Shown here: positions 23,958 through 64,000 of the stretch, piece after piece
Numbering within the stretch: the first letter of the stretch is position 1
Layout of the letters: each line of letters opens with the position of its first letter
Assembly (NCBI GenBank): GCA_964631985.1
Contig: CAZWAX010000001.1
Span: forward strand, 943-64,942
DNA from: an uncultured Polyangiaceae bacterium
GTDB lineage: Bacteria; Desulfobacterota; Binatia; UTPRO1
Length of the DNA: 64,000 bases
Reading direction: 5' to 3'
Position numbers and translations under genes: made by a program
The notes under the pieces: model-generated
Seen by the model: only the letters and a program-made list of their open reading frames with translations
What the model was told of the DNA's origin: nothing
Database searches by the model: none

Positions 23958-23993
23958 GAGCGCGCTCGCCGCATCAGGTTCTTGGCCACGCTC

Positions 23994-46145: not shown

Positions 46146-48020
46146 TCAGGGCTCGATGTTCCAGATGCCCATCATCCCGATGTCCTCGTGCTCGACGATG
46201 TGGCAGTGAAACACGGTCTTCCCCGCGTGATCCATGACCGGAACGAGCAGCGTGATGCTGCCGCCCTTGGGGACGATGACCGTGTCCTTGAGCCCGGGCA
46301 CGCGGGTGTAGAGGTCGGCGTAAGTCGCGAACGCGGGATCGGGACCGTTGGCCGACAGAACCTGCGCGGAGTTGACGTGCTGGTGCCAGGGGTGGTCCAT
46401 CCCGGTCTGGTTCACTATCTCCCAGACCTCGTAGGTGCCCACCTTCGAGTCGTGTTGGTACGCGCTCACGGTGCCATCGGCCATCTCGTCGAAGCTCACG
46501 CCGTTGATGGTTCCCCGGCCCATGAACATGCCGAGGACGAACCGCGTCCGCGGCAACGAGCCCGCGTCGATGGTGAGCCGCCTCGCCGCGGGGTCTACCT
46601 GGGCCGGGAGGACGTCGCCCATTTCCGCTCCTGCGTCTTCGAGCGTGAGGAGCGTCACCTGTGCCGAGGGAGCGCCTCCGAATCCGGGCATGCCGCCCAT
46701 CATCCCCATGCCTCCGCGGTCGTACGGCAGCGCGAGCAGCCGGAAGTTGCCGGCAGCGGGGGACGCCTGGACGAGCAAGTCGAGCCGCTCGGCGGGCGCC
46801 ACCAGGATCTCGCTTACGGAGTACGGCCGGTCGAGCAGACCTCCGTCGGTACCGATGACGTTGAGGGAATGCCCCTCGAGGCTCAGCCGGTAGAAGCGCG
46901 CCGTGCTGGCGTTGAAGATGCGCCACCGCTGCACTTGCCCGGGCCGGATCGCGAGAACGGGGTTCACCTGGCCGTTCACCATCACCAAGTTGCCCTCCTT
47001 CCCCATCACGTAATCCAGGATCGAGTCGTAGGGGGCCGGGCCTCCGCCCGAGAGCGAAATATCCTTGAGCACGAGGAGGTGGGTCTCGTACGCAGCCAGC
47101 GGGCTACCCGGCTCGTCGGCGACGTCGATGGGGCCGATCATGCCGCCCCAGATCTGCTCGGCGACCGCGCCGTGCTGATGCGGGTGGTAGAGCCCCATCG
47201 AGCCAGCGGGTTGCAGCGAAAGGTCGTACTCGTAGTCGAGGCTTCCTCCGCCGGCAGCGACCGACCTGAAGACGTCGTCCCCGGGCGTACCGTTCGGGTT
47301 GGTTGCCGGCGTGACATGCAGGCCGTGCGCGTGAAGATTCGTCACGAACCGCGGATGGCCGAGGAGGTTCGTGGCCCCACTGGCGGGGAGAGCGTTCGTG
47401 AAGTGCAGCCGCAGCAGGTCACCGCGCCTCGCCTGGATGACGGGGGCCACGAAGCCGCCGCCGTAGGTCAGGAACGTGGCCGTGGAGCCGCCGAGGTCGT
47501 CGGCGGCAGTTCGGGCCTCGATCGTGACGCCAACGACGTTGCCGTTCCGTGTGCTCGGCGCCACCGGGGGATCAGCGAATGCCGATCCTGGGGGCGGATC
47601 GGACGGCGGATGGCCCCTCCCCGCGTAGGCATGTGGCGCGTCACAATCTCCGCCCGGGCCAAAGAACGAGCCATCTCTGACGTAGCAACATGACTGAGGG
47701 CACTGGCCCTTTACCAGAAGACCGGCCGCGGCGCGCAAGCTGTTGACCCCGTCGGTGACGGTCATATGCCCGTCACCGTTCATGTCGCACGACGCCATGT
47801 AGTAGACGTCCGCGCCATCGCGCAGCTCGCAGGTGCTTGAGAGACCCGCGGCTGCTCGCAGCATCTGCACCCCGTCCGTGACGGTGACGGCTTGCCGCGA
47901 GTCGCCGCTGGTATGCCCGCACGCGGGCATCATGAAGGATCCTGGGTGGTGCGCTGCCGCTGATGTGGCCAACGTGGCACCGATCAGCACCGTGAACCAC
48001 GAAAGGACTCTCTTTTTCAT
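46146..48020 (-). CDS. Multicopper oxidase (three-domain laccase/CueO-like) with two N-terminal dockerin-like repeats
   Basis: GAGGAG RBS, signal peptide MKKRVLSWFTVLIGATLATSAAA. Cu-ligand motifs HAHGLH, HPHQHG, HPWHQH and HCHIVEHEDIGMMG. N-terminal TVTDGVQMLRAAAGL and CDMNGDGHMTVTDGVNSLRAAAGL repeats. Confidence 0.85.
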   Translation of the reverse strand: MKKRVLSWFTVLIGATLATSAAAHHPGSFMMPACGHTSGDSRQAVTVTDGVQMLRAAAGLSSTCELRDGADVYYMASCDMNGDGHMTVTDGVNSLRAAAGLLVKGQCPQSCCYVRDGSFFGPGGDCDAPHAYAGRGHPPSDPPPGSAFADPPVAPSTRNGNVVGVTIEARTAADDLGGSTATFLTYGGGFVAPVIQARRGDLLRLHFTNALPASGATNLLGHPRFVTNLHAHGLHVTPATNPNGTPGDDVFRSVAAGGGSLDYEYDLSLQPAGSMGLYHPHQHGAVAEQIWGGMIGPIDVADEPGSPLAAYETHLLVLKDISLSGGGPAPYDSILDYVMGKEGNLVMVNGQVNPVLAIRPGQVQRWRIFNASTARFYRLSLEGHSLNVIGTDGGLLDRPYSVSEILVAPAERLDLLVQASPAAGNFRLLALPYDRGGMGMMGGMPGFGGAPSAQVTLLTLEDAGAEMGDVLPAQVDPAARRLTIDAGSLPRTRFVLGMFMGRGTINGVSFDEMADGTVSAYQHDSKVGTYEVWEIVNQTGMDHPWHQHVNSAQVLSANGPDPAFATYADLYTRVPGLKDTVIVPKGGSITLLVPVMDHAGKTVFHCHIVEHEDIGMMGIWNIEP

Positions 48021-48682
48021 TGCTCCTCTATCCTCGACAATCAATCACGTGGTGAACGGCAACGCCCCTGAGCCCAGAGTCCCTTCCTGCCGGTTCGACA
48101 ATCTCGTCAGATTCGCGCTGCGTGGCTCGACATTCCTTGCGCCAACTGCTTCGGGGTGTATTCCCAGTGATGCGATTCCCAGTCGTGGCAACGAGAACGG
48201 GGCGCCGAGCCCCCCCCATGCGAATGCTCTGAAAGCTGGGCGCCACCTATGCCGCGATAGCACCCCGGCGGCGTCCCTGAGAGGCCCGGTGAGGCTTCCG
48301 CACTATGGCGATATTTCAGCGACTCGTCGCGTGGATCATCGACCAGATGCCCAGAGCATTGGTCGAACTCCAACGTGACTAGCTCTTCCCCATCCGCCAG
48401 CTTCACAATTCGCGTAACCGGCATGCCCAATCAAAGAAGCAAGCGTCATGCCCATCGAAACAATACGTACAATTGAATCGCGGCCCAAAGCTTCTCATGC
48501 AAATTTCGCGACGTCGGCTTCGCGCGCGCGGTCGGCATCGAGGGCGATTTCCGAAAGTCACGAATCCGATGACGCATCCGTGAGAATCCAGTCGTTCACG
48601 GCCCTGACATTGCACGCTTGAAGGGCGGCACGCCGTTCGCTTCTCGACTGTAGGTGGCTTCTCGAAAGGAGGTGAGAACTGG

Positions 48683-48814
48683 ATGTCACCAATCGCATTC
48701 GCTCCCCTCATTTGGGGTCTCGCGGCGTTGACGTTCATCGTGATGTTGCGATGGTGGGCGATGAGATCTCACGAGCGCGACCATGGCACGCATCATCATC
48801 ATCATCCGAGCTAG
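48683..48814 (+). CDS. 43-aa membrane peptide with a His5 C-terminus (MSPIAFAPLIWGLAALTFIVMLRWWAMRSHERDHGTHHHHHPS)
   Basis: AGGAGGTGA RBS 7 nt before the ATG. One TM helix then HHHHH. Absent from the ORF track (under 60 aa). Divergent from the MCO gene and upstream of the AraC regulator. Confidence 0.45.
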   Translation: MSPIAFAPLIWGLAALTFIVMLRWWAMRSHERDHGTHHHHHPS

Positions 48815-49106
48815 TGCCCCGACAACGACGGCGCGTCGTAGTAGCGCTCGATCGCGAAGGTGATCCGAACGCGCTCGGCGAGTCCGGCAGGTCGTAAGCG
48901 GACGGCGGGCATCGTCCCCTGGATGACCGCCATCCGTGTCCGGGGTGACGCCAACACTTCACGGTTTCCGTGTGTTTCATCTCAATGGACGTTCGCTCGT
49001 GGGGTTTTCGGTATGCGAGTGCAACGGCGTTACTGTCACTACGGTCAGAGAATCGCTGCACGCCTGGGACCGATCTTTCCTGACGGAGTCATCATCGCCG
49101 GGCGTG

Positions 49107-50042
49107 ATGAGAATCGCGGTCTGCAGACCAACGGCGAGCTTGGTTACAGCGTACGGGTGGCGTCGGGTGGACATCCATGATCGAGGCCCCTTCTGGATGT
49201 CGGAACCGTTGTCAGCTGTCGCGCAGCACGAGAAGTTGCATCTCCTGAACGCGTGCATTGCGCGCGGTGTTGCGGGATTCAAGGCAGGGGGCCCTGTATT
49301 CGCCCCCAAGATGCGTTTCCGCTACTGGTGTGTCGAGATGTGGAACGGGCGCCTGACGCTCGGCGAGTTTTGGGCGACCTACGTCGGACCGAGTGATCAA
49401 AACTCGCCGCATGCGCATGTTGCCGTACAATTGGCTCTCGGCATCGGCGAAGATGTCACGGTGCGCGTTGGGCGCCGCCGGCTCAAGGCGCGCGGCGTCC
49501 TCATCCGACCGCTCACGACCCACACGGTCGCGACCGGGCTTCAGGTCGCTCTTGTCTACGTCGAGCCGCAAGCATCGCTGGGGCGCGCGCTTGTTCAGGC
49601 TTTGGGTGGACGCCTCGCGATGCCACTACCACCTGAGGTCGTCCAAGCTACTTCGCATCTCGACGACCCGGTCGCTCTTCTAAGCCGTCTCGCAGCGGCG
49701 CTCGGCCTAGAGCCACGAGCGGCTCTTGATGCCAGGCTCGCGCACGCGCTCGAACTCCTCGAGCGCTCCGTTGGTGCAGCCGGAGCGATCGCGGATGCCG
49801 CGCACGATGCCGGACTGTCGACTCCTCGGCTGCGCGCCCTAGCGAGCGAACAGCTTGGTGCGCCCCTTGCACGCTGGGTCTTATGGCGGAAGCTTGAGCG
49901 GGCGGGACGCTCGCTTGCTCGCGGGGCGTCTTTAGCTGAGGCAGCGGCTGACGGTGCGTTCGCTGACCAGGCACACCTTGCCCGTACGATGCGGCGGATG
50001 TTCGGTGTCACGCCGAGGGTTGCGGCTCGCGTGCTTCGATAG
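49107..50042 (+). CDS. AraC-family transcriptional regulator
   Basis: C-terminal dual HTH ...GLSTPRLRALASEQLG...LAEAAADGAFADQAHLARTMRRMFGVTP. N-terminal start approximate. Confidence 0.7.
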   Translation: MRIAVCRPTASLVTAYGWRRVDIHDRGPFWMSEPLSAVAQHEKLHLLNACIARGVAGFKAGGPVFAPKMRFRYWCVEMWNGRLTLGEFWATYVGPSDQNSPHAHVAVQLALGIGEDVTVRVGRRRLKARGVLIRPLTTHTVATGLQVALVYVEPQASLGRALVQALGGRLAMPLPPEVVQATSHLDDPVALLSRLAAALGLEPRAALDARLAHALELLERSVGAAGAIADAAHDAGLSTPRLRALASEQLGAPLARWVLWRKLERAGRSLARGASLAEAAADGAFADQAHLARTMRRMFGVTPRVAARVLR

Positions 50043-50109
50043 CAAGCGATTCGTTCAAGACAGGTCGTAGAGAGATGGTGAGGATGTAGCGTCAGGGAGG
50101 TGTCTGAAG

Positions 50110-50979
50110 GTGCTTAACTCTTTGCTTCGCTACGCCTACGCGCCGGTCTTCTTCGTCGGCTTTCTCGGTGCTGGGGTTCTTCTCTCAGGAGGCGGGACGC
50201 GGCCGTCTGCACTCGGGGCGCTCTTGCTGCTTGCGATCGCCGTATCCTTTGCAGCGGAGCGAGCGCTGCCCTACGAACATGGGTTCAATTCGCCGCATGG
50301 AGACGGGTGGCGCGATGTTGCCCATGCGCTCGTGAACGAGGCTTCGAACGCGCTCTCAATCATGTCGCTCCCACTGCTCGCGGCGCTCGTCCCCGATACG
50401 GGACTGTGGCCGTCTGGCTGGCCCCTGCCCCTCCAGGTTCTGCTCGCGGTCGCTGTTGCCGATGTAGGCATCACGCTCGCACACTACGTAAGCCACCGTT
50501 CGCAACTGCTGTGGCGCTTCCATGCTGTCCATCACTCCGTTCAGCGGATGTATGGGTTCAACGGCCTCATGAAACACCCGCTCCACCAGGCCTTCGAGCT
50601 CACGTGTGCAAGTCTCCCTCTCCTTGCTCTCGGCATGCCCGTAAACGTGGCGTGGCTCCTGGGATTTGCTGTTGCGGTGCAGCTTCTCCTGCAACATTCA
50701 AACGTCGATCTCCGAGTTGGACCGCTCATGCACGTCTGGGCTGTTGCACCGGCCCACCGGTTCCACCACCTGAATCGCGCCGGGGACGGCGATGTCAATT
50801 TCGCGCTCTTCTCATCGGTTTGGGATCATCTGCTCGGAACGTTCCACTACGATGTCGGGAAGCAACCGCGCCTCGGTGAGCTCGGCATCGAAGGTCGCGC
50901 CGACTACCCGGTGGGCTACGTTGCGCAGCTTCTCGAACCATTTCGCCCGGAGGACCTCAAGGTCGCTACCTACCGCTAG
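50110..50979 (+). CDS. Sterol desaturase / fatty-acid hydroxylase superfamily membrane protein
   Basis: Histidine boxes HRSQLLWRFHAVHHS and HRFHHL, with several TM helices. Confidence 0.8.
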   Translation: MLNSLLRYAYAPVFFVGFLGAGVLLSGGGTRPSALGALLLLAIAVSFAAERALPYEHGFNSPHGDGWRDVAHALVNEASNALSIMSLPLLAALVPDTGLWPSGWPLPLQVLLAVAVADVGITLAHYVSHRSQLLWRFHAVHHSVQRMYGFNGLMKHPLHQAFELTCASLPLLALGMPVNVAWLLGFAVAVQLLLQHSNVDLRVGPLMHVWAVAPAHRFHHLNRAGDGDVNFALFSSVWDHLLGTFHYDVGKQPRLGELGIEGRADYPVGYVAQLLEPFRPEDLKVATYR

Positions 50980-51060
50980 TGGGCCTTCTGGTCCGCCCTT
51001 TCGACGAGCGCTTCGATCTCCACGTCGATCGCGCCGTCCGTGCAGCGACCGGGCCGGCCT

Positions 51061-51220
51061 CGAGCGCTTGTGCCGCTACCTCTCGACGGTGCGGATGGCC
51101 GATCACATCGTCGTGCTCTCCGAGGGGCGGGTCGCGGAAGGTGGGACGCACGCCGAGGTGATGGCGCGGGAGGGGGTCTATGCCCGCGTCTTCAGCCTCC
51201 AGGCGACCGGCCACCGCTGA
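51061..51220 (+). pseudogene. C-terminal remnant of an ABC-exporter ATPase domain
   Basis: ...LSTVRMADHIVVLSEGRVAEGGTHAEVMAREGVYARVFSLQ corresponds to the conserved ABC C-terminus (H-loop region). No Walker A or signature motif lies upstream. Confidence 0.4.
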
Positions 51221-51410
51221 CCGGCCGGGAGACCCGCAAAAAATATTTGCGTCCTTCATGCAATCTGGCATGTTCGTCGCGCGGTGGGTTCCCACCGTGT
51301 TGCTGCACCGCTCCACTCCCGACGCCATACTGCAATCCCGCTCGACACGGCGGTTTCGGAGTGGTCAAGCAGCGATTCCAGAGCGCACGGAGCGCAGAGG
51401 AGATCCCTCC

Positions 51411-52040
51411 ATGAAACTTCTCGGATGGTTGGTTGCGGTGGTGGCGTGCCCGCTGGTCCTCGGATCGTCGGCCGAGGCGCAAACGGTCTCGGTCGACCGC
51501 TGCGCCGGCGCCAAGATGCGGTGCGTGATGGGTTACACGCACATCTGCGGCGTTGTGGGTGTGGAAGGGCAGCTCAAGTGCTACCAGACCGCGACGCTCC
51601 GCGGCCGGTTCGTCGATCAGGTCTGCATCACTCGCACGGTCGACAAGATTCACGAGTGCTTCCGGGCTGCCGAAAGCCGGAACGTCTGCCGGACGGCCGG
51701 CGACGCGAACCAGATCCAGGCCAAGATCGAACCCTTCGTGCTCGACGTGATCCGCGACGTGACGCCCGGGTTCCCGTATCCGTCGATCAACACGTGCGCT
51801 GCCGGCAAGCAGAAGGCGCTCGCTGACGCGACCTCGGCGAAGCTCGGTTGCTTCGAAGAGGCGTTCCGGCGCGACCCGGGCCTCGTCGCCCCGGGTTGCC
51901 TCGCGCAGGCCCAGGCGCAGTACGAGTACGCCTGGCTCCGCCTGGCGCTGAATGGTGGGTGCGCCACGGGCGACGAGATCGCGCTCACGGCCAAGATGGA
52001 CGCGTTCGTCGCGGACATGGTTGTGACGCTCGATCCCTGA
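51411..52040 (+). CDS. Secreted Cys-rich protein (209 aa, about 12 Cys)
   Basis: GAGGAG RBS, signal peptide MKLLGWLVAVVACPLVLGSSAEA. Cys spacing resembles the Cys-rich modules of the three giant secreted proteins upstream. Confidence 0.6.
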   Translation: MKLLGWLVAVVACPLVLGSSAEAQTVSVDRCAGAKMRCVMGYTHICGVVGVEGQLKCYQTATLRGRFVDQVCITRTVDKIHECFRAAESRNVCRTAGDANQIQAKIEPFVLDVIRDVTPGFPYPSINTCAAGKQKALADATSAKLGCFEEAFRRDPGLVAPGCLAQAQAQYEYAWLRLALNGGCATGDEIALTAKMDAFVADMVVTLDP

Positions 52041-52115
52041 GCGTCTCGCCAATCGGGCCGCGGAACACGAGCCGGTTACCGGGCGGTCTTCGTCCAGGTG
52101 CCCGAGGCGGGCAGC

Positions 52116-52407
52116 ATGGGCGTTGTCGGCGTGCTCGCCCTCCTGGTCAACATTGTTTGTGCCGCCGTGCTCCTCCCACATCGCGAGGGCGATGCAAACG
52201 TGCGCGCCGTGTGGCTGTTCAGTCGAACGATGCCATCGGCAATGCCGGCGTAGTCGCCGCCGCCGCGGCCGTACCGCTCACTGGAACCCTGTGGCCGGAC
52301 CTTGTGGTGGCCGTCGCCATTGCTGGCCTGTTTCTACATTTGGCCGCCGACACATCCGCGATGGCCTGGCCGAACTGCGCGGGCAGCCGGCCGTGGAACC
52401 GCGGTAA
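52116..52407 (+). pseudogene. Decayed cation-diffusion-facilitator (CzcD-like) gene remnant with frameshifts
   Basis: Frame 1 reads ...VLALLVNIVCAAVLLPHREGDANVRAVWLF. The +1 frame continues NDAIGNAGVVAAAAAVPLTGTLWPDLVVAVAIAGLF, matching the CDF TM4-TM5 signature (LNVRGA...LGDALGSVGV...W.DP) only across frames. Confidence 0.4.
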
Positions 52408-52651
52408 CAAAACTACTGGGGCTTCGAGACGTCGCTGATTTCCGAGATACATCGAGTGCGTAAGTGCGTACCACGACGGAACGCGCTCCACTGCTCCGGT
52501 GTACAAGCTGCGCTGTTGGCGGTTCTATCGCTGCTGGTCGCGGGGCCCGAGGATCTGCTCACGTAGTTTCACGCGTAGCCCTCAAGCGACCGGCTTGAAA
52601 CTGTGAGTCTGTACTCCCGGTCTCGGGAGCCCAAACCGAAGGAGGATACGA

Positions 52652-52990
52652 ATGAAGAAGACCCCGATGGTAGCTCTGGCCGCAGTGTTGATGCTCAGCG
52701 CCGCCACGGCATTGCCCGTATTCGCGGCCGACATGTCCGCAAAGGTTGGGGCGGCCAAGACGGCAGCCGACCATGAGGCCATCGCCACCGAGTACGCGAA
52801 CGAGGCCAAAGAGGCGGAAGCACGCGCTGCCGAGCACGACAAGATGGCCGCCAGTTACAAAGGCCTCGGCAAAATTGGCCAGGTGCATGACACCCACTGT
52901 GCGGCCATCGCGAAGCGGGAGCGCGAGAATGCGAAGGATTTGACCGGGCTCGCTGACGCGCACCGCGCGCAAGCTAAATCAGCCAAGTAA
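52652..52990 (+). CDS. Small secreted protein (112 aa), unknown function
   Basis: GGAGGA RBS, signal peptide MKKTPMVALAAVLMLSAATALPVFAA. Helical Ala/Glu/Lys-rich mature part. Confidence 0.6.
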   Translation: MKKTPMVALAAVLMLSAATALPVFAADMSAKVGAAKTAADHEAIATEYANEAKEAEARAAEHDKMAASYKGLGKIGQVHDTHCAAIAKRERENAKDLTGLADAHRAQAKSAK

Positions 52991-53107
52991 CCCCAAAAGA
53001 GAGTATCAGGCGGACGGGCACCGCCCGCCGGGTGTCCGTCCGCGTGTTCTCGCAGCGGCTCCCGCTGCGGCGATTCATTCCTTGAGACAAGAAAGGAGCA
53101 ACACGTC

Positions 53108-53302: not shown

Positions 53303-53307
53303 TGCCA

Positions 53308-54250
53308 CTACCCCGTCGGAACCAAGGGGCCGAGGGAGCAGGCCTTCATGCGAAAAGCAGCTTCAGATCGGCGACCCCACCAACATCTCGAGGTTGACGT
53401 CGCTTGCGACATCAGGCGGTCATCGGCAACGAGAGTAACGTACACGCGCGGGGTGCTGGAGCAATCGTTCGCCGCGCCCGCGATCGCGTCAAGCTCGAAC
53501 CTGGAACAGCGGCCATTGGGGGCGGCGCCCATGAGCCAGCTGAAGTCCACGACGCTTGGACGAAAGATGACGTCCCGTCCGTTGCAGAATCCGCACTCGT
53601 GCAGCGTGTAGCCGGCACGCTGTGCGAACGAGATCGCGGTCGCGATGGGCCCGATCTCCATGCGTGACCAGCCCGAGAGTCGCGGCCCACGGGCTTATTG
53701 TGGACGGCAGTGTGAGGGCTTCGCTCGTCTCGCGTCTCGCGAGGAAACGCTCGACGCGCTGACGGGGATCAAGCGGCATCCCTTCCATTCTGGGCAACTC
53801 GAAAAAGCTCGCAGTGCCACTTACGAACAGATGGTTCACGTGGCCCAGCTCGACGTCGATGCTCCACGCCGGAGGCGCCATCGTAGGGTCGACATGCTCG
53901 TTCGGCCGAGTGACGGACGCCCGCCACGGCAACTCGATCGAACCGTCCACGGCATCCACTTTGAACGCGTGATCCCAGAACCAGACCGTCGTCCCGGCCG
54001 TGACGTAGGCGCTTTCACGGGGCAGATGCAGGACGAGCACCAATGCGGGCGATGTCCTGCATGAGATTCGCGCTTCGAGCGCCGGACGAACGTCACCGAA
54101 TGGCGAGTCGATAGTTCCGAGCGGCAGGTTGAACACTCCGACCGCGCCAGCCTGCGTGAGAGAAGGAACGCTCGAAGGAATCCACTTGGTCCCCCGTGCG
54201 GTGAAGTCCTTTTCGGCGAGTTCGGAAAGCCATTCCAGGTGGTCGCGCAT
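53308..54250 (-). pseudogene. Two overlapping same-strand ORFs (253 aa and 117 aa) in different frames, possibly one frameshifted gene of unknown function
   Basis: ORFs 53489..54250 and 53308..53661 overlap by 173 nt. No recognisable domain. Confidence 0.3.
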
Positions 54251-54352
54251 CGCGCTCCTCCAGCGGTTCGAAAGCGAACCACGTCATTGCCAGTCGCAAT
54301 TCGCCCGGCAGTTGTGGCGGGGGCCACATACAACGCGCGTCAGATTCCTGAT

Positions 54353-56526: not shown

Positions 56527-56886
56527 CTAGCGCCGATACGGGTCGTGGAACTCTTCGTGTTGCTGGTTGAGATCCTGGTGAACCGCGCCGTGCTCGGCGT
56601 TTCGCTCCCGGTGGCCTTCTTCGTGAGCGCGGTCCAATCGCCGATGAACACGGCGATGCTGCTTACGCGTCATCGGCTGCGAATGCACAGCGCGATGGGC
56701 ATCGTTCAAGTCGCGGTGTTCGGCGTTGTGCTGCTGCCCCAGATCCTGATGGGTGTCCTGGTGGTCGGCGTTGAGATCCTCGTGAACGGATTCATGCTCG
56801 GGGTCGTGCGCGGGAACGGCGCCCGGAAGAGCAACGAATGCGCTCAGGACGAGGGCGAGAAAATACGCATGGTGTCGGCGAAGCAT
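56527..56886 (-). CDS. Secreted His-rich repeat protein (about 119 aa)
   Basis: Signal peptide MLRRHHAYFLALVLSAFVALPGAVPA, then repeated H-x-DLN-x2-H / HQDxxxxH units (HEDLNADHQDTHQDLGQQHNAEHRDLNDAHRAVH...HGAVHQDLNQQHEEFH). Confidence 0.6.
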   Translation of the reverse strand: MLRRHHAYFLALVLSAFVALPGAVPAHDPEHESVHEDLNADHQDTHQDLGQQHNAEHRDLNDAHRAVHSQPMTRKQHRRVHRRLDRAHEEGHRERNAEHGAVHQDLNQQHEEFHDPYRR

Positions 56887-57243: not shown

Positions 57244-58425
57244 CTAAAGCGGGTTCGTTTCAGGACCGGAGCCGCACTCGTAGACTCGGATCGTCCACTG
57301 ACTTCCAGAGGTGAGGGTTGTGGTCGTAATCGCTTGGATGGGTGTCGAGATTCGGGCGAGCAGTCGCCAGATGTGAGAGGCCTTCGGATTCGTCCCCATC
57401 GAGACGACGACAACTCCACCGCTATTTCGCAGAAGTGCGTGCGCTCGCCGAAACACACCCTCTACTGACGCGAGCGGGAAGTAATAGAGAACTTCGTTGA
57501 GGACGACCACGTCGAAGCGCTTGGCGGGTTGAAAGTCGGCGAATGACCCGGTGTAGAAAGAGCGGTCGACGCCTTCACCGAAATCCCGCAGACAGTCCGC
57601 GACAACTGCGGGCGCGATATCCAGCCCGGTGTAGGACGACACAGCTCCCTTCAGAAGCGGATACAGTATCGCGTGTCCGCAACCGACGTCGAGCACGTCG
57701 GCGCCGAGCGGGAAACGATCGCGAACAATGCCGCTGATGACGTAGTGACGAGGCCGTTGAGGGAGGGAACGCAGGAACTCCCACTCGCCGTTCGCATACA
57801 TCCGGTTCCACCGCGTGGGACTGCTCGCGACGAAAAGATTCCATGCGTTCGAGACTTCATGTCTGAGTGAGGTCGCCGGCGCCGGTGAATCGAGAAAGCT
57901 CAAGGTAGACGTCCGGGCCACTCTGAAGGCAACGGCGCCGAAGAGGACTCCGGTGATCAACTCGGCCGCCGTGTGGTGCCGGATGACGTATGCGGACCCG
58001 ACGATGAGGGCTAGCGCAGCCGCAAGTAGTAGCCGCTGTGCCCCACGAACTTCGATGAATACTACTGAGCTCGCCAGGACCACGCTCGCCGTTTGGAAAC
58101 ATGTTGCATAGGGCGTTTGTCGCGGCGCCCCGATCAGCACGTAGACGGCGCTTCCGATTGTGAGAAGCAGCAGACCTACGGAGAACCGCCACAGAGCGCC
58201 CGAGTGCGAGCGGAGCGGGAAAACGAGAAAGGGCAGGAGATTCAATGCATATCCGGACAGGTTCACTAGCCTCCACACCGACCTACCGGGTGGCCCGAGG
58301 CCTGCGAACACATCTAACGGCCGGTGAATCGCGTGCTCAGCATGGCTCGCGGTTTCGAAGCCGAATAGCGTCGCTGTCAGACCGACGGCAAAAATCGCCA
58401 GCGGCGGCGTTGCTCGAGGCCTCAC
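57244..58425 (-). CDS. Membrane protein with a PAP2-like N-terminal region fused to a class I SAM-dependent methyltransferase domain
   Basis: GTG start immediately after the upstream stop. Multiple TM helices. VLDVGCGHAILYPLL (motif I) and ...VVLNEVLYY... . The PAP2 assignment is tentative. Confidence 0.55.
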   Translation of the reverse strand: MRPRATPPLAIFAVGLTATLFGFETASHAEHAIHRPLDVFAGLGPPGRSVWRLVNLSGYALNLLPFLVFPLRSHSGALWRFSVGLLLLTIGSAVYVLIGAPRQTPYATCFQTASVVLASSVVFIEVRGAQRLLLAAALALIVGSAYVIRHHTAAELITGVLFGAVAFRVARTSTLSFLDSPAPATSLRHEVSNAWNLFVASSPTRWNRMYANGEWEFLRSLPQRPRHYVISGIVRDRFPLGADVLDVGCGHAILYPLLKGAVSSYTGLDIAPAVVADCLRDFGEGVDRSFYTGSFADFQPAKRFDVVVLNEVLYYFPLASVEGVFRRAHALLRNSGGVVVVSMGTNPKASHIWRLLARISTPIQAITTTTLTSGSQWTIRVYECGSGPETNPL

Positions 58426-58794
58426 CTATTTCGTCGTTGAGTCGCTGTGGCTAGGGGACGGCAAAGGCGGTGCAGGTGTCTCCAATGGCACGACAACCCC
58501 GAGCATTACGTCGGTGGCAAGCAAGTTGCCGCTTCGCAGTCGAGACCCGTGCACCGTGACCTGCATGCCTGGCGTTAGGTCAGCCTGTGCGGCTGGTCCG
58601 TCCCAACGGCGGAACTTGGTACTATCGTTGATCTTGACGGTTGCGTTGCCACCATCGGGAGTTTTCATCACGAATTCGTTTTTCCCGACGGTGGTCACTT
58701 CTCCGTCAAAGGTCGTTTCGTTCTGCTGAGTAGGTCCGTGAGCCAAAGCCACGGCCGCCGGAAGGATGAAAGCAAGTAGTATCGTCGCACGCAT
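58426..58794 (-). CDS. Small periplasmic protein (DUF5666-like beta-fold)
   Basis: Signal peptide MRATILLAFILPAAVALAHG. ...TVKINDSTKFRRWDGPAAQADLTPGMQVTVHG... pattern also occurs in the protein at 63537. Confidence 0.55.
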   Translation of the reverse strand: MRATILLAFILPAAVALAHGPTQQNETTFDGEVTTVGKNEFVMKTPDGGNATVKINDSTKFRRWDGPAAQADLTPGMQVTVHGSRLRSGNLLATDVMLGVVVPLETPAPPLPSPSHSDSTTK

Positions 58795-58997
58795 GTTGAG
58801 TTCCTTTTCGCCATTAGCCCACAAAGAGCGGGCAAGTGGATGTCCTGGACGTGAGACGGCGCGGCGATCTATGGCGCGCCAGCGTCAAGCATCGGAGGTA
58901 ACGCGTGGAACGCGGAAGGTCTCACACCGTTCGGTTCAGCAGCCCACTAGGACTCGGAACCGGCGTGGAGTCCGAAGACGTCTCGGGGAGAGACCTC

Positions 58998-59423
58998 TCA
59001 GATCAGAAAGATATGGTGGAGAAGGTGTTTCCGCTGCGGGGAGCCTCTGGGGGCGTACGTTCGCTTAACTAGGGACGCCGACGCGAGCCATGGCGACCGC
59101 TGAGATGCTGAAGCGATCGGCAAACGAACCGAGTCGAGAACGGGACCAGTCGAACTTCCCGGGTCGCTAGAGGCCACAAGTTGCCAAGCATCACAGTGCC
59201 GACAAGTGTTAGTGCTCCGCTCAGCGGGTGAAGATTGGCGATTCTCGTCAGCCGTCGTCGTCGCGGGACGGCCGTGACAGCTCGCGACTGCGGACGGTGA
59301 GGCGAGGTTCTTTTCCGGTCGGGAAAGTTCGAAGCCGCACCGGCACAGCGCTGACATGAGTACGAGCGAGGCCGTCAGCATGGTCACTAGGGTGCGGCGC
59401 AGTGTCATGCTGCGGGTGATCAT
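58998..59423 (-). CDS. Small Cys/His-motif secreted protein (CzcI/CusF-neighbourhood type); paralogue of 59601..59987
   Basis: MITRSMTLRRTLVTMLTASLVLMSALCRC...CHG...CRHC...HLLHHIFLI. Start uncertain (no SD). Confidence 0.45.
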   Translation of the reverse strand: MITRSMTLRRTLVTMLTASLVLMSALCRCGFELSRPEKNLASPSAVASCHGRPATTTADENRQSSPAERSTNTCRHCDAWQLVASSDPGSSTGPVLDSVRLPIASASQRSPWLASASLVKRTYAPRGSPQRKHLLHHIFLI

Positions 59424-59600
59424 GGGTCTCTGTCGGATGCCTAGCAAGACGACGCCTGCGTTTCCAACGAAGTGCCTGTTGTCACGTAAGAGCTTATGGG
59501 CGGCGGCTCCTGGTCTCCTCGTGGGCGTGAAAGGCGCGAGATTGCTCACCGAATGACGGGTCTTGCCAGCTGCCTCTGAAGAGGCGCATGATCGCGAAGC

Positions 59601-59987
59601 ATGCGGTATCGGCAAGTCATTGGGACCATCGCGATCGTCACCTTAGCGGTGACCTCGGTCCTCTGTGGCTGCAAGTCGAGTTTTGCCGCGTCGACCTCCG
59701 CCGCCGCGGCGGAAGGCTGTCACGGCGGGCATCAGTCGAAGTCGAGCGATTCGAGCTCGCACGAACATCAGAAGAATTGTCAGCACTGCAAGCACGCACA
59801 GTTCCTTGAGAGTAAGGACGCCGGCAAGTTGGCCGCTGCACCTGTTCTTCAGCCGCTCGCCTGGGCGTCTAGTAACTTCCTTGTTGCCGTTCCGCCGATG
59901 GTGTTCGTGACGTCTCGTCAACGGATGCCCTGTTCGCGGGCGGCGCCCCCACCACTTCACCTCCTGAATCAAGTCTTCCTGATCTGA
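59601..59987 (+). CDS. Small lipoprotein-like Cys/His-rich protein, immediately upstream of the TolC-like gene; paralogue of 58998..59423
   Basis: MRYRQVIGTIAIVTLAVTSVLCGC...CHGGHQSKSSDSSSHEHQKNCQHCKH...HLLNQVFLI. Confidence 0.5.
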   Translation: MRYRQVIGTIAIVTLAVTSVLCGCKSSFAASTSAAAAEGCHGGHQSKSSDSSSHEHQKNCQHCKHAQFLESKDAGKLAAAPVLQPLAWASSNFLVAVPPMVFVTSRQRMPCSRAAPPPLHLLNQVFLI

Positions 59988-60348
59988 ACCCCTCTCCCAA
60001 CGGTGCGCAGAAGGCGCGCCAGGGCTGAGCTGCGTCCGCCATTCTATTTCCTCGCGGACGCCATGTTTTCCTCCGGCCATCGAGGATGAGGGGTGATGAG
60101 AAGACTATCGTTTGTACTTTTGATGCTGCCGCTTGCGAGCTGTGTCGCAGCGGTCCAGATGCCGCCGCTCTCGGCGAACCATCCGGCGAGCCCGGCCGCT
60201 GAAGAAGCGCCGGTTCCCGCATTGTCGCCGACGCTCGCCCTGCCAGAGCGGGCTGGCGACTCGCGCGGTGCGATCAAGTCGCGCGAATCAGTCCGAGGAG
60301 ATGAGCCCACAACGCCCCAAGGCGATCACAAGGGCCATGGAGGCGGGC

Positions 60349-61782
60349 ATGCTCACTAAACCGCTTCTTGGTCTCGTGCTTGTCGCTTTGACGACCGGAG
60401 GTTGTGCGGCCGTGAATGCACGGTTGGGACTCCCGGACGTAGAGCGGCTGGTTGCCGAGCGTGCGAACGCTTCCGTCTCGTGGCCCGAGACCGCGGAGGA
60501 GCGCGCGCAGGTCGAGCACACCGTTCAAGGGATTCTTGGGGAAGATCTCACGGTTGAGAGCGCGGTTCGGCTCGCGCTTCTCCACAACCGGAACCTGCAG
60601 GCCGTCTACCAAGAGCTTGGCATTGCTCAAGCCGAGCTCGTTCAGGCGGGTCTGCTTCCGAACCCGGTGCTAAGCGCGAATGTGCGCTTCGGGCTTGGCC
60701 CATCCGGGACGGGGGCTGAGCTTGGGCTCGTTCAAGAGCTCATCAATCTCTTGCAGATTCCTCTCAAGAAGCGCGTCGCAGCGGCCAATCTGGAACGGGC
60801 GAAGGCCGAGGTTGCGGGGGCCGTGCTCGACCTCGTCTTCGATGTGAAAGCTGCCTTCTACGGGCTCCAAGCGGGACTGCAGATGCTCGAGCTTCGGCGG
60901 AGTGTTGCGGACGCGACGGGATTCTCGCGCCTCGTCGCGGAACGGCAGCACGAGGCTGGAAATATCTCGGATCTCGAGGTGCGGACCGAACAGGCGCTCC
61001 ACGAAGAATCGAAAGTTGAGCTGGCGATCGCAGAAGCCGCCGTGCTCGAGGATCGCGAGACGCTCAACACCCAGCTTGGGCTCTGGGGTGGACAGACCAC
61101 ATGGTCCATCGGCGGGCGCCTACCGAGTCTTCCGCGCGAGGAGTCGAGCGGGAAGGGCCTCGAGAGCCGTGCCGTGGCTCAGCGATTGGACCTTGTTGTC
61201 GCTCGCACGCAAGGCCTCTCCCAGGTCGCGGAGCTTCGATTGACCCGCTTCTACGGCCTCCTCCCTTCAGGCTCGACGGGAGTGGCCTCCGAACGTGAGA
61301 CTGAAGGCGGCTGGTCGCTTGGACCCTCCGTCAATGTTCCGCTTCCGATCTTCGATCAGAATCAAGCGCTGATCGCGAGTAGCGCCGCCCGACTGCGGGC
61401 GAGTGAGGAACGAGTTGCTGCACTCGCCGTAGAGATTCGCGCCGATGTGCGTCGGGCCCGGATTCGTCTCGAAGCAGCACGGCAGCGAGCCGCCTACTAC
61501 GAGGCGGTTTTGCTGCCGCTCAAGAGCGATGTCGTTGAGGAGACGCTGCTTCAGTACAACGCGATGCAGGTCGGGCCCCTTCAACTGGTCCAGGCGAAGC
61601 GCGACCAGATTGATGTGGGGCGCCGCTACATCGAGACACTGGGTGAGTATTGGGCGGCCCGCACGGAGCTCGAGCGTGCCGTAGGTGGCGAGCTCACGCT
61701 TACGGACGGGCTTCCCGCGGCAGTCGAGACACCCGCGATTCCCGCGCCGCAAACGGGGTCGCAGCATCATCACGGAGGTTGA
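60349..61782 (+). CDS. TolC-family outer-membrane efflux protein (CusC/CzcC-like)
   Basis: GGAGG RBS 5 nt before the ATG. Lipoprotein-like N-terminus MLTKPLLGLVLVALTTGGC. Two repeats of the outer-membrane-factor helical/beta pattern. The Arg-rich N-terminal extension of the track ORF is spurious. Confidence 0.8.
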   Translation: MLTKPLLGLVLVALTTGGCAAVNARLGLPDVERLVAERANASVSWPETAEERAQVEHTVQGILGEDLTVESAVRLALLHNRNLQAVYQELGIAQAELVQAGLLPNPVLSANVRFGLGPSGTGAELGLVQELINLLQIPLKKRVAAANLERAKAEVAGAVLDLVFDVKAAFYGLQAGLQMLELRRSVADATGFSRLVAERQHEAGNISDLEVRTEQALHEESKVELAIAEAAVLEDRETLNTQLGLWGGQTTWSIGGRLPSLPREESSGKGLESRAVAQRLDLVVARTQGLSQVAELRLTRFYGLLPSGSTGVASERETEGGWSLGPSVNVPLPIFDQNQALIASSAARLRASEERVAALAVEIRADVRRARIRLEAARQRAAYYEAVLLPLKSDVVEETLLQYNAMQVGPLQLVQAKRDQIDVGRRYIETLGEYWAARTELERAVGGELTLTDGLPAAVETPAIPAPQTGSQHHHGG

Positions 61783-61789
61783 GGGAATC

Positions 61790-63484
61790 ATGGCAAGCGA
61801 GAAGGATCAGAAGATTGCGACCTGGGCTCGACCTATGTCGCGCCGTCAAGCGATCGCGACTGGTGCGGGTGCGTTGGTAGCAGGCACGAGCCTACTTGGT
61901 GGCGTTCGCGAGGCGCGTGCGGAAACGACGGCGCCTTCAGAGACGCCGAGCTTCGAGCAGTATCCGTTCGGACGGTCCGTGGATGCCAGTGGCACGCGGT
62001 ATTCGGACGCACACTGGGATCTGCCCGGCGAACCCGGACGCGACTACACGCCGGTCGTCACACCAAACGGTTGGACCCTCCCCTATCGGGTCGTCGACGG
62101 GGTCAAGGTCTTCGAGCTCGTCGCCGAAGAGGTGGAGCACGAGTTCGCTCCGGGACTGAAAGCGAAGTGCTGGGGTTTTAACGGCGGCGTACACGGCCCG
62201 ACCATCGAAGCGGTCGAGGGCGATCGCGTGCGCATCTACGTTACGAACCGGCTTCCTGCGCCGCACGCTGTGCACTGGCACGGGATTCTTCTTCCAAACG
62301 GCATGGACGGTGTGGCGGGCCTCAATCAACCGACGATCCGGCCGGGCGAGACCTTCCGATACGAGTTTACTCTCCGGCAGCACGGCACGCACATGTACCA
62401 CAGCCATCACGACGAGATGACGCAGATGGCGCTTGGTTCCATGGGGTTGTTCATCATCCATCCGCGGTCTCCTGGTGTCCGCCCTGATCGGGACTTCGCG
62501 CTGCTCATCAGCGAGTGGCAGATCCGAGTCGGCACCGCTCGGCCTAATCCGAACGAGATGACGGACTTCAACATCTTCACGTTTAACGCGAAGGCCTTCC
62601 CGGGTACGGCACCGCTCGTCGCAAAACTCGGGGACAAGGTTCGGATGCGGTTTGCGAGCGTTGCCGTGATGGACCATCACCCGATCCATCTCCACGGGTA
62701 CCAGTTCCCGATTGTTGCAACCGATGGCGGAACAATTTCGCCCTCCGCACGGCATATGGAGACCACAGTTCTGGTGGCGGTCGGGCAGTCGCGAATGATC
62801 GAGTTCACCGCTGACGAGCCTGGCGACTGGGCGATGCACTGTCACATGACTCACCACGTGATGAACCAGATGGGCGACGATTTCCCGAACATGATTGGCG
62901 TGAATCCAGAGGGGCTCGACGAGAAGGCTCGCGCGCTTCTGCCTGGCTACATGAGCATGGGCCACGACGGCATGGGCGACATGGCCGAGCACATCGAATC
63001 GGGCCACATGCCGGTGCCGAAGAACAGCATTCCGATGATCGGCGGCGCTGGCCCGTTCGACTACATCACCATGGGCGGCCTCTTCACGGTCTTCAAAGTC
63101 CACCCGGATCTCACGAGCTACGAGGATCCAGGCTGGTACAAGAATCCGCCGGGAACGGTCGCCGACCGCGCGAGCGGCGAGGCGCTGCGTCGCGATGGCG
63201 TGAAGTTCGATGGGAGCTCTGCGCCGCGAGCGCCGGCTGCGGCGCTTCGGTCTCACAAGCTCGCGGCTCCTCCGCCAGGTCAATACCGCGGGCGCCTTCC
63301 GACGAAGCGCGGAAACGGTGGCGGTCATGCCGGGCACAGCATGCCGAAGTCGACCACGAAAGCGCCGAAAGCCGCACCGGCTTCGGACGGGACTTACACG
63401 TGCCCGATGCACCCGGAAGTCGTGTCGAAGAAGCCCGGCGTCTGTCCCAAGTGCGGCATGCGGCTCACTCGGCGAGGAAACTGA
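61790..63484 (+). CDS. Multicopper oxidase (CopA/CueO-like) with a Tat signal and a C-terminal CxxC heavy-metal-binding tail
   Basis: SRRQAIATGAGALVAGTSLL (twin-Arg). HWHGI, HSHHDE, HPIHLHG and HCHMTHH Cu sites. C-terminal YTCPMHPEV...CPKCGM. Confidence 0.85.
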   Translation: MASEKDQKIATWARPMSRRQAIATGAGALVAGTSLLGGVREARAETTAPSETPSFEQYPFGRSVDASGTRYSDAHWDLPGEPGRDYTPVVTPNGWTLPYRVVDGVKVFELVAEEVEHEFAPGLKAKCWGFNGGVHGPTIEAVEGDRVRIYVTNRLPAPHAVHWHGILLPNGMDGVAGLNQPTIRPGETFRYEFTLRQHGTHMYHSHHDEMTQMALGSMGLFIIHPRSPGVRPDRDFALLISEWQIRVGTARPNPNEMTDFNIFTFNAKAFPGTAPLVAKLGDKVRMRFASVAVMDHHPIHLHGYQFPIVATDGGTISPSARHMETTVLVAVGQSRMIEFTADEPGDWAMHCHMTHHVMNQMGDDFPNMIGVNPEGLDEKARALLPGYMSMGHDGMGDMAEHIESGHMPVPKNSIPMIGGAGPFDYITMGGLFTVFKVHPDLTSYEDPGWYKNPPGTVADRASGEALRRDGVKFDGSSAPRAPAAALRSHKLAAPPPGQYRGRLPTKRGNGGGHAGHSMPKSTTKAPKAAPASDGTYTCPMHPEVVSKKPGVCPKCGMRLTRRGN

Positions 63485-63536
63485 GAGGCGAGAGAATCGA
63501 GATGAAGAACGCGAACCAACGAGCGGAGATAGAACC

Positions 63537-63893
63537 ATGCGAACGAAAGTAGTGACAGCGGTCCTCGGTCTGACCGTGTTCCTGAGCGCCACCCACTCGT
63601 GGGCGCACGACGAGTCGATGCACAAGGCGAAGCCGACCCGAGGGCGCGTCGCCGCGCTCCAGGGCGAATCGCTGACGCTGACGACCGACGATGGCCAGAT
63701 CGGCGTCATCCTCACGCCTGAGACCAAGGTGGAGCAAGGGGACAAGATCGTCGGGCGCGAAGCGCTGACGGCTGGAACAGCGGTAGATGTGTTCGGAACT
63801 ACTGTGCCGGGGCAAGGTCTTGTGGCGAAGGAGATCCTCGTGGGTGACGCTCACGATGGGCATTCCGAGGCGGGCGCAGGTCACAAGCACTAG
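63537..63893 (+). CDS. Small periplasmic protein (DUF5666-like) with a His-rich C-terminus
   Basis: Signal peptide MRTKVVTAVLGLTVFLSATHSWA. ...DAHDGHSEAGAGHKH at the end. Confidence 0.6.
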   Translation: MRTKVVTAVLGLTVFLSATHSWAHDESMHKAKPTRGRVAALQGESLTLTTDDGQIGVILTPETKVEQGDKIVGREALTAGTAVDVFGTTVPGQGLVAKEILVGDAHDGHSEAGAGHKH

Positions 63894-63902
63894 GAGCGGG
63901 CG

Positions 63903-64000
63903 ATGAAACTCAACCGCTTACTGCTTGTCCTCGCGGTGGCCGCAGTCCTCGTAGGAGTCGCCGGCTACGCCTACCTCGTCTCGCACACCTTCAGTGCACG
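63903..64000 (+). CDS. 5' end of a membrane/periplasmic protein gene (truncated by the window edge)
   Basis: AGGAGC RBS 5 nt before the ATG. MKLNRLLLVLAVAAVLVGVAGYAYLVSHTFS is a TM anchor. It could be an efflux adaptor but is too short to call. Confidence 0.35.
   Translation, partial: MKLNRLLLVLAVAAVLVGVAGYAYLVSHTFSA

Follow-up and report, generated by a model that had tools for sequence, protein, structure and literature searches.

In copper-resistance clusters of the CopA/CopB (PcoA/PcoB) type, a periplasmic multicopper oxidase (MCO) that is exported by the twin-arginine translocation (Tat) pathway and carries Met/His-rich segments is encoded beside an outer-membrane protein. Met/His-rich inserts are typical of cuprous oxidases such as CueO and the Thermus MCO. 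Here we describe a copper-related gene cluster in a DNA stretch of 64,000 nucleotides (“the window”) from an uncultured Polyangiaceae bacterium (assembly GCA_964631985.1, contig CAZWAX010000001.1). The cluster occupies positions 46146 to 64000 and encodes three copper oxidases in 18 kb: a laccase-like enzyme (MCO1), a galactose-oxidase-like (GOx-like) protein and a Tat-exported oxidase (MCO2).

Described systems also bear on the small proteins encoded around these enzymes. DUF2946 proteins have been defined by an export signal, a CXXC motif, a C-terminal RAPP or Pro-rich arrest motif about 45 residues further on, and a position as first gene of a copper operon (PMC9426467). Work on CutF placed CzcI, CopL and CruR in one superfamily and found genes for outer-membrane efflux proteins (OEPs) to be the commonest downstream neighbor (10.1101/2022.11.11.516240). 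The copper-induced curA operon of Myxococcus xanthus (MXAN_3413-3421) encodes a His-rich protein, the MCO CuoA, the regulators CorSR, a DUF305 protein, a CopA ATPase and a PF13442 cytochrome c; cytochromes c of this family are tied to copper-response genes, and the one in the curA operon is MXAN_3414 (PMC3707914).

A mosaic copper-handling cluster

The region 46146-64000 is a real, copper-related, mosaic cluster and is not a new system. An earlier note, made by reading the window, had proposed an acquired copper-resistance and oxidase island with three different copper oxidases and many His-rich small proteins. Pfam matches and motifs bear out the three oxidases, in all of which the catalytic residues are intact, and several His-rich small proteins are present (a secreted repeat protein of 119 amino acids (aa), an 87-aa lipoprotein and a DUF5666-like protein, DUF5666b). 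The copper-handling part of the proposal is supported because the relatives of the core operon sit in copper loci, one of them on the plasmid pBMUL01. Horizontal acquisition is plausible, given the lower G+C content at third codon positions (GC3), the reshuffling of modules among contigs and the transposase genes that flank a close homologue of the GOx-like gene. We consider it likely that the region is a cluster for copper handling in the cell envelope, mosaic in make-up and probably acquired horizontally, whose modules are also found in related contigs in different combinations.

The core of the cluster is a seven-gene operon on the plus strand; at least four other contigs have it in collinear order, with 88-92% identity. 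Where a contig has an MCO that exceeds 90% identity to MCO2, it keeps the leader gene, the 87-aa lipoprotein, the OEP, the MCO with its C-terminal HMBD, a DUF5666-like protein, a cytochrome c and a small TRASH-like protein. Beyond the operon, modules are reordered among contigs that share 84-92% nucleotide identity. One related contig (L003) has divergent CusC-CusB-CusA genes upstream of the core, together with a YHS protein gene and a pair encoding an AraC regulator and a fatty-acid hydroxylase. Two others (L004 and L005) have leader A, DUF5666 and a membrane methyltransferase followed by CopA-CopB, and also carry DUF305, Csp, a second MCO, CsoR and a YHS/HMBD Cu-ATPase; in L004, CsoR and the Cu-ATPase lie about 4 kb downstream of the core.

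Scanning GTDB representatives, one genome per species, gave 80 loci (best identity 70%, the source genome not being in this set), and 51 independent loci with a true MCO2 relative were counted. They span Verrucomicrobiota, Planctomycetota, Myxococcota, Pseudomonadota and Rokubacteria. An OEP gene stood beside the MCO2 relative, on the same strand, in 46 of the 51. Within 10 kb of the MCO2 relative we found a CopA-type ATPase in 27 loci, CsoR and CusB in 10 each, Csp in 8, and CusA and CopB in 5 each. The pair of OEP and two-domain MCO, often with an HMBD, is very widespread and is annotated in many genomes; a literature search on this module returned nothing specific and no experimental paper.

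The plus-strand core operon

MCO2 (61790-63484, plus strand) is a Tat-exported two-domain MCO with a C-terminal HMBD, matching the Pfam families Cu-oxidase_3, Cu-oxidase_2 and HMBD. Its twin-arginine signal, MSRRQAIATGAGALVAGTSLLGG (SRRQAIATGAG), followed by a hydrophobic stretch, was found by reading. Domain 1 contains HWHG and YHSHH, and domain 2 contains HPIHLHG and HCHMTHHVMNQM; all four copper-site motifs are thus present, together with a Met/His-rich insert. The HMBD (PF19335) scores 45.5 bits against a cut-off of 23.6 at residues 571-594 of the long open reading frame (ORF), where it reads YTCPMHPEVVSKKPGVCPKCG (CPMH...CPKCG). The best solved relatives are the two-domain MCOs 2zwn, 3g5w and 3gdc, although the T1 Cys of MCO2 lies in domain 2 and that of 2zwn in domain 1. 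More than 8000 relatives were found, many of them with an HMBD. The earlier note had called this protein a Tat-exported, CopA-like MCO with a CxxC tail. Its export and its tail stand, the latter as the HMBD, but it is not CopA or PcoA: it scores 161 bits against the TIGR01480 cut-off of 479 and has just two cupredoxin domains.

Immediately upstream is the gene for a TolC/CusC-type OEP lipoprotein of 477 aa (60349-61782, plus strand), which matches PF02321 in two repeats (E 8.4e-28) and has the lipobox LTTGGC, in line with the TolC/CusC-like outer-membrane protein that had been read there. It ends in a short His tail, SQHHHGG (61750-61782), a further His-rich terminus in the operon. Its start codon is overlapped by the end of the gene for the 87-aa lipoprotein (60096-60359, plus strand), a feature that the earlier note had passed over. 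This small protein has the lipobox LASC and a His-rich tail, GDHKGHGGGHAH; its gene is called in L001-L006, and the analogous position on pBMUL01 is held by a small His/Met-rich protein.

Downstream of MCO2 lies DUF5666b (63537-63893, plus strand), a small periplasmic protein that is His-rich at its N-terminal (HDESMH) and C-terminal (DAHDGHSEAGAGHKH) ends and scores 22.6 bits against the PF18914 cut-off of 27. It stands where pBMUL01 has a CusF-like protein. The next gene, beginning at 63903 on the plus strand, runs off the window at 64000. It encodes a membrane-anchored mono-heme cytochrome c of 174 aa (PF13442; L001:12114-12638) with a cbb3 subunit III-type domain according to NCBIfam and Pfam. 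The sequence past 64000 was taken from Logan contigs that bear the exact MCO2 protein. In these 660 nt the cytochrome c gene is completed and a TRASH/YHS-like membrane protein (L001:12635-12871) follows; no pump is encoded there. The Logan assemblies of three runs (SRR13723395, SRR13723387 and SRR13723393) all break off at one base, after 237 nt of the TRASH/YHS-like gene (L001:12871, L002:10352 and L179:1140, about 660 nt past the window end), which suggests a repeat or a strain-variable junction.

Two divergent leader proteins

Between the minus-strand and plus-strand gene sets lie two genes for exported Cys/His proteins, divergently transcribed, each at the head of its set: leader A (58998-59423, minus strand), which is CutF/CruR/CzcI-like and has the motifs CxC, CHG and CRHC, and leader B (59601-59987, plus strand), which is CutF/CruR-like and has CxC, CHG, CQHC and a C-terminal RAAPPP. 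The two are paralogues (28% identical, E 2e-13). They had been described as paired CzcI-like proteins; the pairing holds, and the label was a fair guess, since leader B fits the published DUF2946 definition and the scope of the CutF superfamily. We refine it to copper-sensing leader proteins of the CutF/CruR type (DUF2946-related), the sensing being assigned by analogy and the match to DUF2946 itself staying below the cut-off.

Leader B has a signal or transmembrane segment, CQHC at residues 60-63 and RAAPPP at residues 112-117, with 48 residues between the last two. Leader A, which has a 75% identical copy in both L004 and L005, is without the Pro-rich arrest motif. A profile search of 1.84 billion representatives with the leader family returned just 30 relatives at E<=1e-3, so this search does not establish DUF2946 membership. 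In the family alignment a CxC that ends the N-terminal hydrophobic segment and a CxHC are invariant and a third Cys is nearly so, and toward the C-terminus most members have PPP and then LLxxCxLLI. The sequence SRAAPPPLHLL(K/N)QVFLI is shared by leader B and all six of its orthologues. In the related loci, members of the family are encoded by the first gene of a copper operon. Two divergent paralogues, one with and one without a proline arrest motif, would provide a natural test case for nascent-chain copper sensors.

Between leader B and the lipoprotein gene lies a structured intergenic leader (59988-60095, plus strand) with a minimum free energy of -56.2 kcal/mol and a z-score of -2.8. The sequence ACCCCUC right after the leader B stop codon is predicted to pair with the Shine-Dalgarno sequence of the next gene, GAGGGGU. 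Against L003, nucleotide identity rises abruptly at 60014, to about 92% beyond this point; the leader B gene just before it has diverged beyond the reach of blastn (44% identity between the proteins). Judging by this alignment, a recombination breakpoint at 60014 separates the leader from the other genes of the operon.

Upstream of leader B, at 59563-59592, are the sigma-70-like hexamers TTGCCA-18-CATGAT with the dyad GCCTCTGAAGAGGC in their spacer. This arrangement is kept in L004 and not in L003, and a promoter scan gave no more than chance would (1 hit, where 2.6 were expected). A search for CueR or CusR operators, which the earlier note had suggested, turned up just this 6+6 dyad.

A galactose-oxidase-like protein in copper loci

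The GOx-like gene (54353-56338, minus strand) encodes a secreted protein with Ig-like, CarboxypepD_reg, kelch propeller and E-set domains, as identified by Pfam. Kelch_6 (E 4e-15) and GO-like_E_set (E 6e-14) supply the kelch propeller and the C-terminal E-set (DUF1929) that GlxA and the fungal galactose and glyoxal oxidases of family AA5 share. AA5 enzymes also have in common a cross-linked Cys and Tyr, an axial Tyr and two His ligands. In an alignment of 25 GOx-like relatives (56-88% identity), C266, W320-Y321, Y520-H521 and H603 are invariant. The RWY segment aligns with RWYP of GlxA (4unm) in both profile and single-sequence alignments; in GlxA and in the related solved oxidase 6ryx, EYH has NYH as its counterpart, and THW is matched by THV (GlxA) and THS (6ryx). 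C266 was assigned by reading: it lies one blade upstream, with the same spacing to the blade GG as in the FCTGH segment of GlxA. Taken together, the invariant residues, the alignments to GlxA and 6ryx and the blade register of the Cys indicate that the protein holds the full ligand set of a copper-radical oxidase, in keeping with the earlier identification of a galactose-oxidase-like radical copper oxidase. It forms a clade distinct from GlxA, scoring 120 bits against the cut-off of 800 for the GlxA equivalog NF052501.

To characterize the surroundings of this clade, 80 metagenome loci were fetched by the GOx-like profile alone, and the 41 with at least 8 kb of sequence were counted; the set includes a few duplicates (L120=L126, L140=L141). 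At least one recognized copper-homeostasis gene lay within 10 kb of the GOx-like gene in 17 of the 41, a count made without a matched control. A CopA-type ATPase was present in 10 of them (mostly at 50-76% identity) and an MCO in 9. The OEP-MCO pair, with a two-domain MCO, was found in four distinct loci: L097, L106, L115 and the duplicate pair L120/L126. As a rough prior, a random 20-kb window has about a 1% chance of holding a copper gene, there being one to a few such genes per genome. What is new here is the finding of copper genes at loci that were chosen by GOx-like homology alone.

Individual loci illustrate the association, which spans several phyla. In L009 (Verrucomicrobiota) the genes for the GOx-like protein, the OEP and the two-domain MCO all lie on one strand. 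The gene for P0142, a 65% identical GOx-like protein, is bounded by CopB-CopA and, on its opposite flank, by a group made up of CusA, a cupredoxin, a Cu-ATPase and DUF305. P0156 is followed by CsoR and then by the two-domain MCO and OEP genes, and P0144 adjoins a Cu-ATPase, CsoR and an HMA chaperone. P0141 (in L089), 88% identical to the protein in the window, is flanked by transposase genes and by the AraC and hydroxylase pair. L088, the copper island of the 65% identical GOx-like homologue, also has catalase and glycoamylase genes nearby (5912-7000 and 10216-11529), neighbors that are possibly relevant if the oxidase produces H2O2 or acts on glycans.

A literature search found no paper tying copper-radical oxidases to copper-resistance loci, although absence there is not proof. 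We tentatively propose, as something quite possible but somewhat short of an even chance, that the GOx-like clade (CarboxypepD_reg, kelch and E-set) is a regular, integrated component of copper-homeostasis loci and, linked to this, that the pair of OEP and two-domain MCO may act as a CopAB-like module, widespread and independent of an RND pump. If so, copper-radical oxidases would have a new, unrecognized role in copper stress, and the genes described here would be candidates for biochemistry.

Other genes of the cluster

The remaining minus-strand genes lie between the GOx-like gene and leader A. The first encodes the secreted 119-aa protein (56527-56886, minus strand), which has five H-x-(D/R)-L-(N/G/D)-x-x-H units and 19 His residues, and agrees with the secreted HxDLNxxH repeat protein of the earlier note. 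It has no Pfam or NCBIfam match and is presumed to be a periplasmic metal binder. Candidate homologues in copper loci were rejected, as the weak tblastn matches were antisense-frame artefacts of high-GC DNA. Next are a membrane-anchored class-I S-adenosylmethionine (SAM) methyltransferase (57244-58425, minus strand; Methyltransf_23/25/11 at residues 237-346) and the periplasmic protein DUF5666a (58426-58794, minus strand; PF18914, 36.1 bits against a cut-off of 27). The two genes are kept as a pair in L004 and L005, with 86% nucleotide identity. In the window, the GOx-like and His-repeat genes stand where L004 has CopAB. The two DUF5666-like proteins had both been credited with His tails. DUF5666b alone has one, and falls below the Pfam cut-off; DUF5666a passes the cut-off and has no tail, its predicted mature N-terminus starting with His. 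Class-I SAM methyltransferases recur in copper loci (for example L004:13057-13746, L094:14441-15031 and several of L096-L174): the membrane-anchored type is coupled to DUF5666, and a soluble 229-aa type occurs in 3 of the 51 MCO loci and 7 of the 80 GOx-selected loci.

At the other end of the cluster, MCO1 (46146-48020, minus strand) is a Sec-exported, three-domain, laccase-like MCO with matches to Cu-oxidase_3, Cu-oxidase and Cu-oxidase_2 in Pfam. An end-to-end alignment (E 6.5e-79) pairs residues 145-621 with 2xu9, a laccase of Thermus thermophilus. Its copper-site motifs, read by eye, are HAHGLH, HPHQH, HPWHQH and HCHIVEHEDIGMM, as in a three-domain laccase, and it has a Met-rich loop, GGMGMMGGMPGFGG, and a Cys-rich N-terminal extension of 140 aa. 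The earlier note had described a laccase-like MCO with dockerin repeats. The laccase likeness is clear from the alignment, but residues 1-160 have no match to Dockerin_1 (PF00404), even at E<=10; by eye alone, the N-terminus contains one DMNGDGHMTVTD loop and one degenerate copy.

The genes between MCO1 and the GOx-like gene are varied. A 43-aa ORF (48683-48814, plus strand), found in a six-frame scan, has one predicted transmembrane helix and an HHHHHPS tail and is the His5 membrane peptide of the earlier note. The ORF exists and is listed as a candidate gene only: its GC3 is just 0.66 and it has no tblastn match among the fetched loci. The AraC-family regulator that had been read next to it is present (49338-50042, plus strand; HTH_18, E 2.5e-14); it is 56% identical to a 235-aa AraC protein of L003, and this comparison sets its start codon. 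Beside it is a gene for a membrane fatty-acid hydroxylase, a di-iron enzyme of the sterol-desaturase type (50110-50979, plus strand; PF04116, E 1.2e-19), which the earlier note did not mention. The two are kept as a pair in L003 and in L089, where they adjoin the 88% identical GOx homologue.

Decayed CDF and ABC genes had also been reported. A 3' remnant of a type-I ABC exporter is indeed present (51071-51220, plus strand) and encodes about the last 46 residues of the nucleotide-binding domain; in phmmer searches of the PDB it matched ABCB4 (E 3.1e-15) and an Atm1-type heavy-metal exporter (E 1.4e-6). The CDF remnant found no support in Pfam, in phmmer against the PDB or in tblastn with a real CDF protein from L091 (best E 7.3). 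Two genes for secreted proteins follow. One product is Cys-rich (51411-52040, plus strand; 209 aa, 12 Cys, GC3 0.87), with no Pfam match and no homologue in the related loci. The other is a 112-aa protein rich in Ala, Glu and Lys (52652-52990, plus strand), called as an ORF with no Pfam match; its homologue in L003, at 69% nucleotide identity, lies between the CusC gene and the core OEP gene. The last is a decayed, frameshifted copy of a 307-aa gene (53308-54250, minus strand), a further feature absent from the earlier note, recognized by matches to the intact gene of L003. The N-terminal part is at 53489-54250 and the C-terminal part at 53308-53694 in another frame, each 75-76% identical to the L003 gene. 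Logan assemblies of this sequence yield an identical 253-aa gene call.

Composition and boundaries of the region

Coding frames were picked by their GC3 pattern, and profile searches were run afterwards. The GC content of the window is 0.68-0.72 up to 23 kb and, from about 24 kb onward, 0.60-0.65. Likewise, GC3 is about 0.9 for genes in the first 1-21 kb as against 0.63-0.87 in 46146-64000. The boundary lies at roughly 23-24 kb (23000-24500): GC is about 0.70 before it and about 0.62 after it, and GC3 about 0.9 and about 0.7, respectively. It follows that the copper cluster forms the distal portion of a low-GC block of about 40 kb.

The proximal part of this block, 24000-46000, encodes a 1446-aa NACHT/STAND NTPase with an NCAB2 domain (38389-42729) and a Ser/Thr kinase (31673-33034), is rich in ORFs with no Pfam match, and looks like a variable or defense-type region. 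At its end, an imperfect direct repeat of about 70 nt (43148-43230 and 45714-45795; 29-nt core at 90% identity) encloses a 701-aa ORF (43324-45429) that has no Pfam match. A tRNA fragment had been placed just outside the cluster. The sequence in question is a T-arm-like motif of 22 nt, GTGGGTTCAAATCCCGGCGGGT (45858-45879), which neither ARAGORN nor Rfam, in gathering and E-value modes, recognized as a tRNA. It occurs once in the window, and no repeat matching it was found elsewhere in the window as a mark of an island end.

Possible function and alternative explanations

As outlined above, we favor a mosaic envelope copper-handling cluster, whose functional core would be the plus-strand operon from 59601 to beyond 64000. 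By analogy with its family, leader B would sense copper during its own translation and export and thereby set the expression of the downstream genes, which would make the operon copper-inducible. The 87-aa lipoprotein and DUF5666b would bind periplasmic copper, and MCO2, with its Met/His-rich insert and Cys4 HMBD, would oxidize periplasmic Cu(I) to the less toxic Cu(II). The TolC-like OEP may serve as the outer-membrane partner, as CopB does for CopA, mostly without an adjacent RND pump, so that copper would be passed out through the OEP or held at it. The operon would then be a functional analogue of CopA/CopB (PcoA/PcoB). The minus-strand genes (leader A, DUF5666a, methyltransferase, His-repeat and GOx-like) and MCO1 may encode copper-dependent or copper-binding envelope proteins that travel with this detoxification core.

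Several observations weigh against this interpretation. Neither 46146-64000 nor the next 660 nt encodes a P1B ATPase, an RND or membrane fusion protein (MFP) component, CueR, CsoR, or CusRS/CopRS. The window thus lacks the efflux pump and copper-responsive regulator of a complete copper-resistance island, and with no MFP (CusB) or RND (CusA) gene adjacent to the OEP gene the cluster is not of the CusCBA type. Decay in several genes, seen in the ABC remnant and the frameshifted copy, means that some of the cluster may not be active, and no link to copper has been demonstrated for the AraC regulator, the fatty-acid hydroxylase, the Cys-rich protein or the methyltransferase. Leader B matches DUF2946 (PF11162) weakly, at E 9e-4 and 20.4 bits against a cut-off of 23.7; leader A has no DUF2946 match, and 6 of 29 relatives match at E<=0.01. 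The consensus fold of the intergenic region, from 4 sequences, has 36 pairs and 0 compensatory changes, for which reason masking of the Shine-Dalgarno sequence after leader B is a prediction only, and the 5' arm of the fold is deleted in L003. Some MCO2 relatives, moreover, are labeled “manganese oxidase” by JGI.

One alternative, already voiced in the earlier note, is that the region is the periphery of a complete copper-resistance island, with a cusBA-type RND or copA-type P1B ATPase core and its regulator a few kb downstream. The source contig, at 70,795 bp, leaves up to 6.8 kb outside the window; in L004, CsoR and a Cu-ATPase follow the core about 4 kb downstream, and in L003 CusCBA lies directly upstream of it; and 27 of the 51 related loci have a Cu-ATPase within 10 kb. 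On the other hand, the remaining 24 have none within that distance, the first 660 nt past the window encode the cytochrome c and the TRASH/YHS-like protein, the remaining 6.8 kb may be upstream of the window, and the reachable assemblies all break at one point. We regard a core of this kind as possible but somewhat doubtful.

It is unlikely, in our view, that the cluster has nothing to do with resistance and instead encodes copper-dependent extracytoplasmic oxidases for phenolics, Mn(II), or polysaccharides and alcohols, with the His/Cys-rich proteins engaged in copper supply or maturation. Three oxidases of different classes in 18 kb, the absence of an efflux pump from the window and the “manganese oxidase” labels would fit such a role, as would the dedicated copper delivery that GlxA-type oxidases need for maturation of their cofactor (PMC4736821). 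However, the neighbors of the MCO2 family are overwhelmingly detoxification genes (ATPase, CsoR, Csp, Cus and CopB), the leader family heads detoxification operons, and the Met/His-rich insert is of the kind that cuprous oxidases have. More improbable still is a “junkyard”: a variable region in which unrelated genes, some of them dead, have piled up by chance and without functional coherence. The ABC remnant, the frameshifted gene, the varying gene order among close relatives and the variable neighborhood at 24-46 kb, with its NACHT/STAND NTPase and many unknowns, could be taken in that sense; together with the shuffling of modules, the two decayed genes also fit a mobile, mosaic region. A chance assembly is hard to reconcile with seven core genes that are collinear at 88-92% identity in at least four other contigs, with OEP-MCO adjacency in 46 of 51 loci across phyla and with intact catalytic residues in three oxidases. 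As a whole the region is one more mobile copper-homeostasis cluster, useful chiefly as a well-dissected example from an uncultured lineage.

Comparison with known copper systems

The gene order of the core operon is found on the conjugative plasmid pBMUL01 of Burkholderia multivorans ATCC 17616 (NC_010070.1, BMUL_RS31690-31675). There, a Cys/His leader ending in ERPPRH is followed by a small His/Met-rich secreted protein, a TolC-family protein, a copper oxidase and a CusF-like protein. The copper oxidase has two domains and is 52% identical to MCO2 over 80% of its length, but is without the HMBD tail, and the small binder is CusF-like on the plasmid and DUF5666-like in the window. The plasmid operon lies between CopRS and CopCD-CusCBA, all of which are absent from the window.

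Like the window operon, the curA operon of M. xanthus combines a small His-rich protein, an MCO and a PF13442 membrane cytochrome c, MXAN_3414 being the counterpart of the cytochrome c in the window. Unlike the window operon, it includes a two-component regulator of its own as well as a P1B ATPase, and neither an OEP nor a CutF-like leader has been reported for it. For CuoA, the three MCO Pfam domains (PF07732, PF07731 and PF00394) are all listed.

Leaders A and B resemble CutF of Rhodobacter capsulatus (cutFOG), CruR of Bordetella pertussis, CopL of Xanthomonas and CzcI of Cupriavidus, which are likewise small exported proteins with a copper-binding Cys motif (CQHC in leader B and CRHC in leader A). 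The spacing between the Cys and Pro motifs is 45 residues in CruR and 48 in leader B. As in the cutFOG/CruR family, leader B is encoded by the first gene of an operon that contains an OEP and an MCO, and the structured intergenic region may mask the next ribosome-binding site. The differences are that the window leaders have an extra invariant CxC at the end of the signal or transmembrane segment, that leader B has a hydrophobic LLxxVFLI 11 residues after the PPP whereas the RAPP of CruR lies 3 residues from the end, and that there are two divergent paralogues here, one of them without the Pro motif. In addition, the next gene downstream of leader B encodes a His-tail lipoprotein and not an MCO, such as the CutO of cutFOG.

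With respect to GlxA, the GOx-like protein adds N-terminal Ig-like and CarboxypepD_reg domains, and its gene lies inside copper-homeostasis loci and not beside a cellulose-synthase-like gene. Finally, MCO2 and its OEP recall CopA and CopB. In contrast to CopA, MCO2 has two cupredoxin domains, not three, and a C-terminal HMBD, and in place of CopB (PF05275) the outer-membrane partner is a TolC-type OEP (PF02321). True CopAB proteins are encoded separately in the related contigs L004 and L005.

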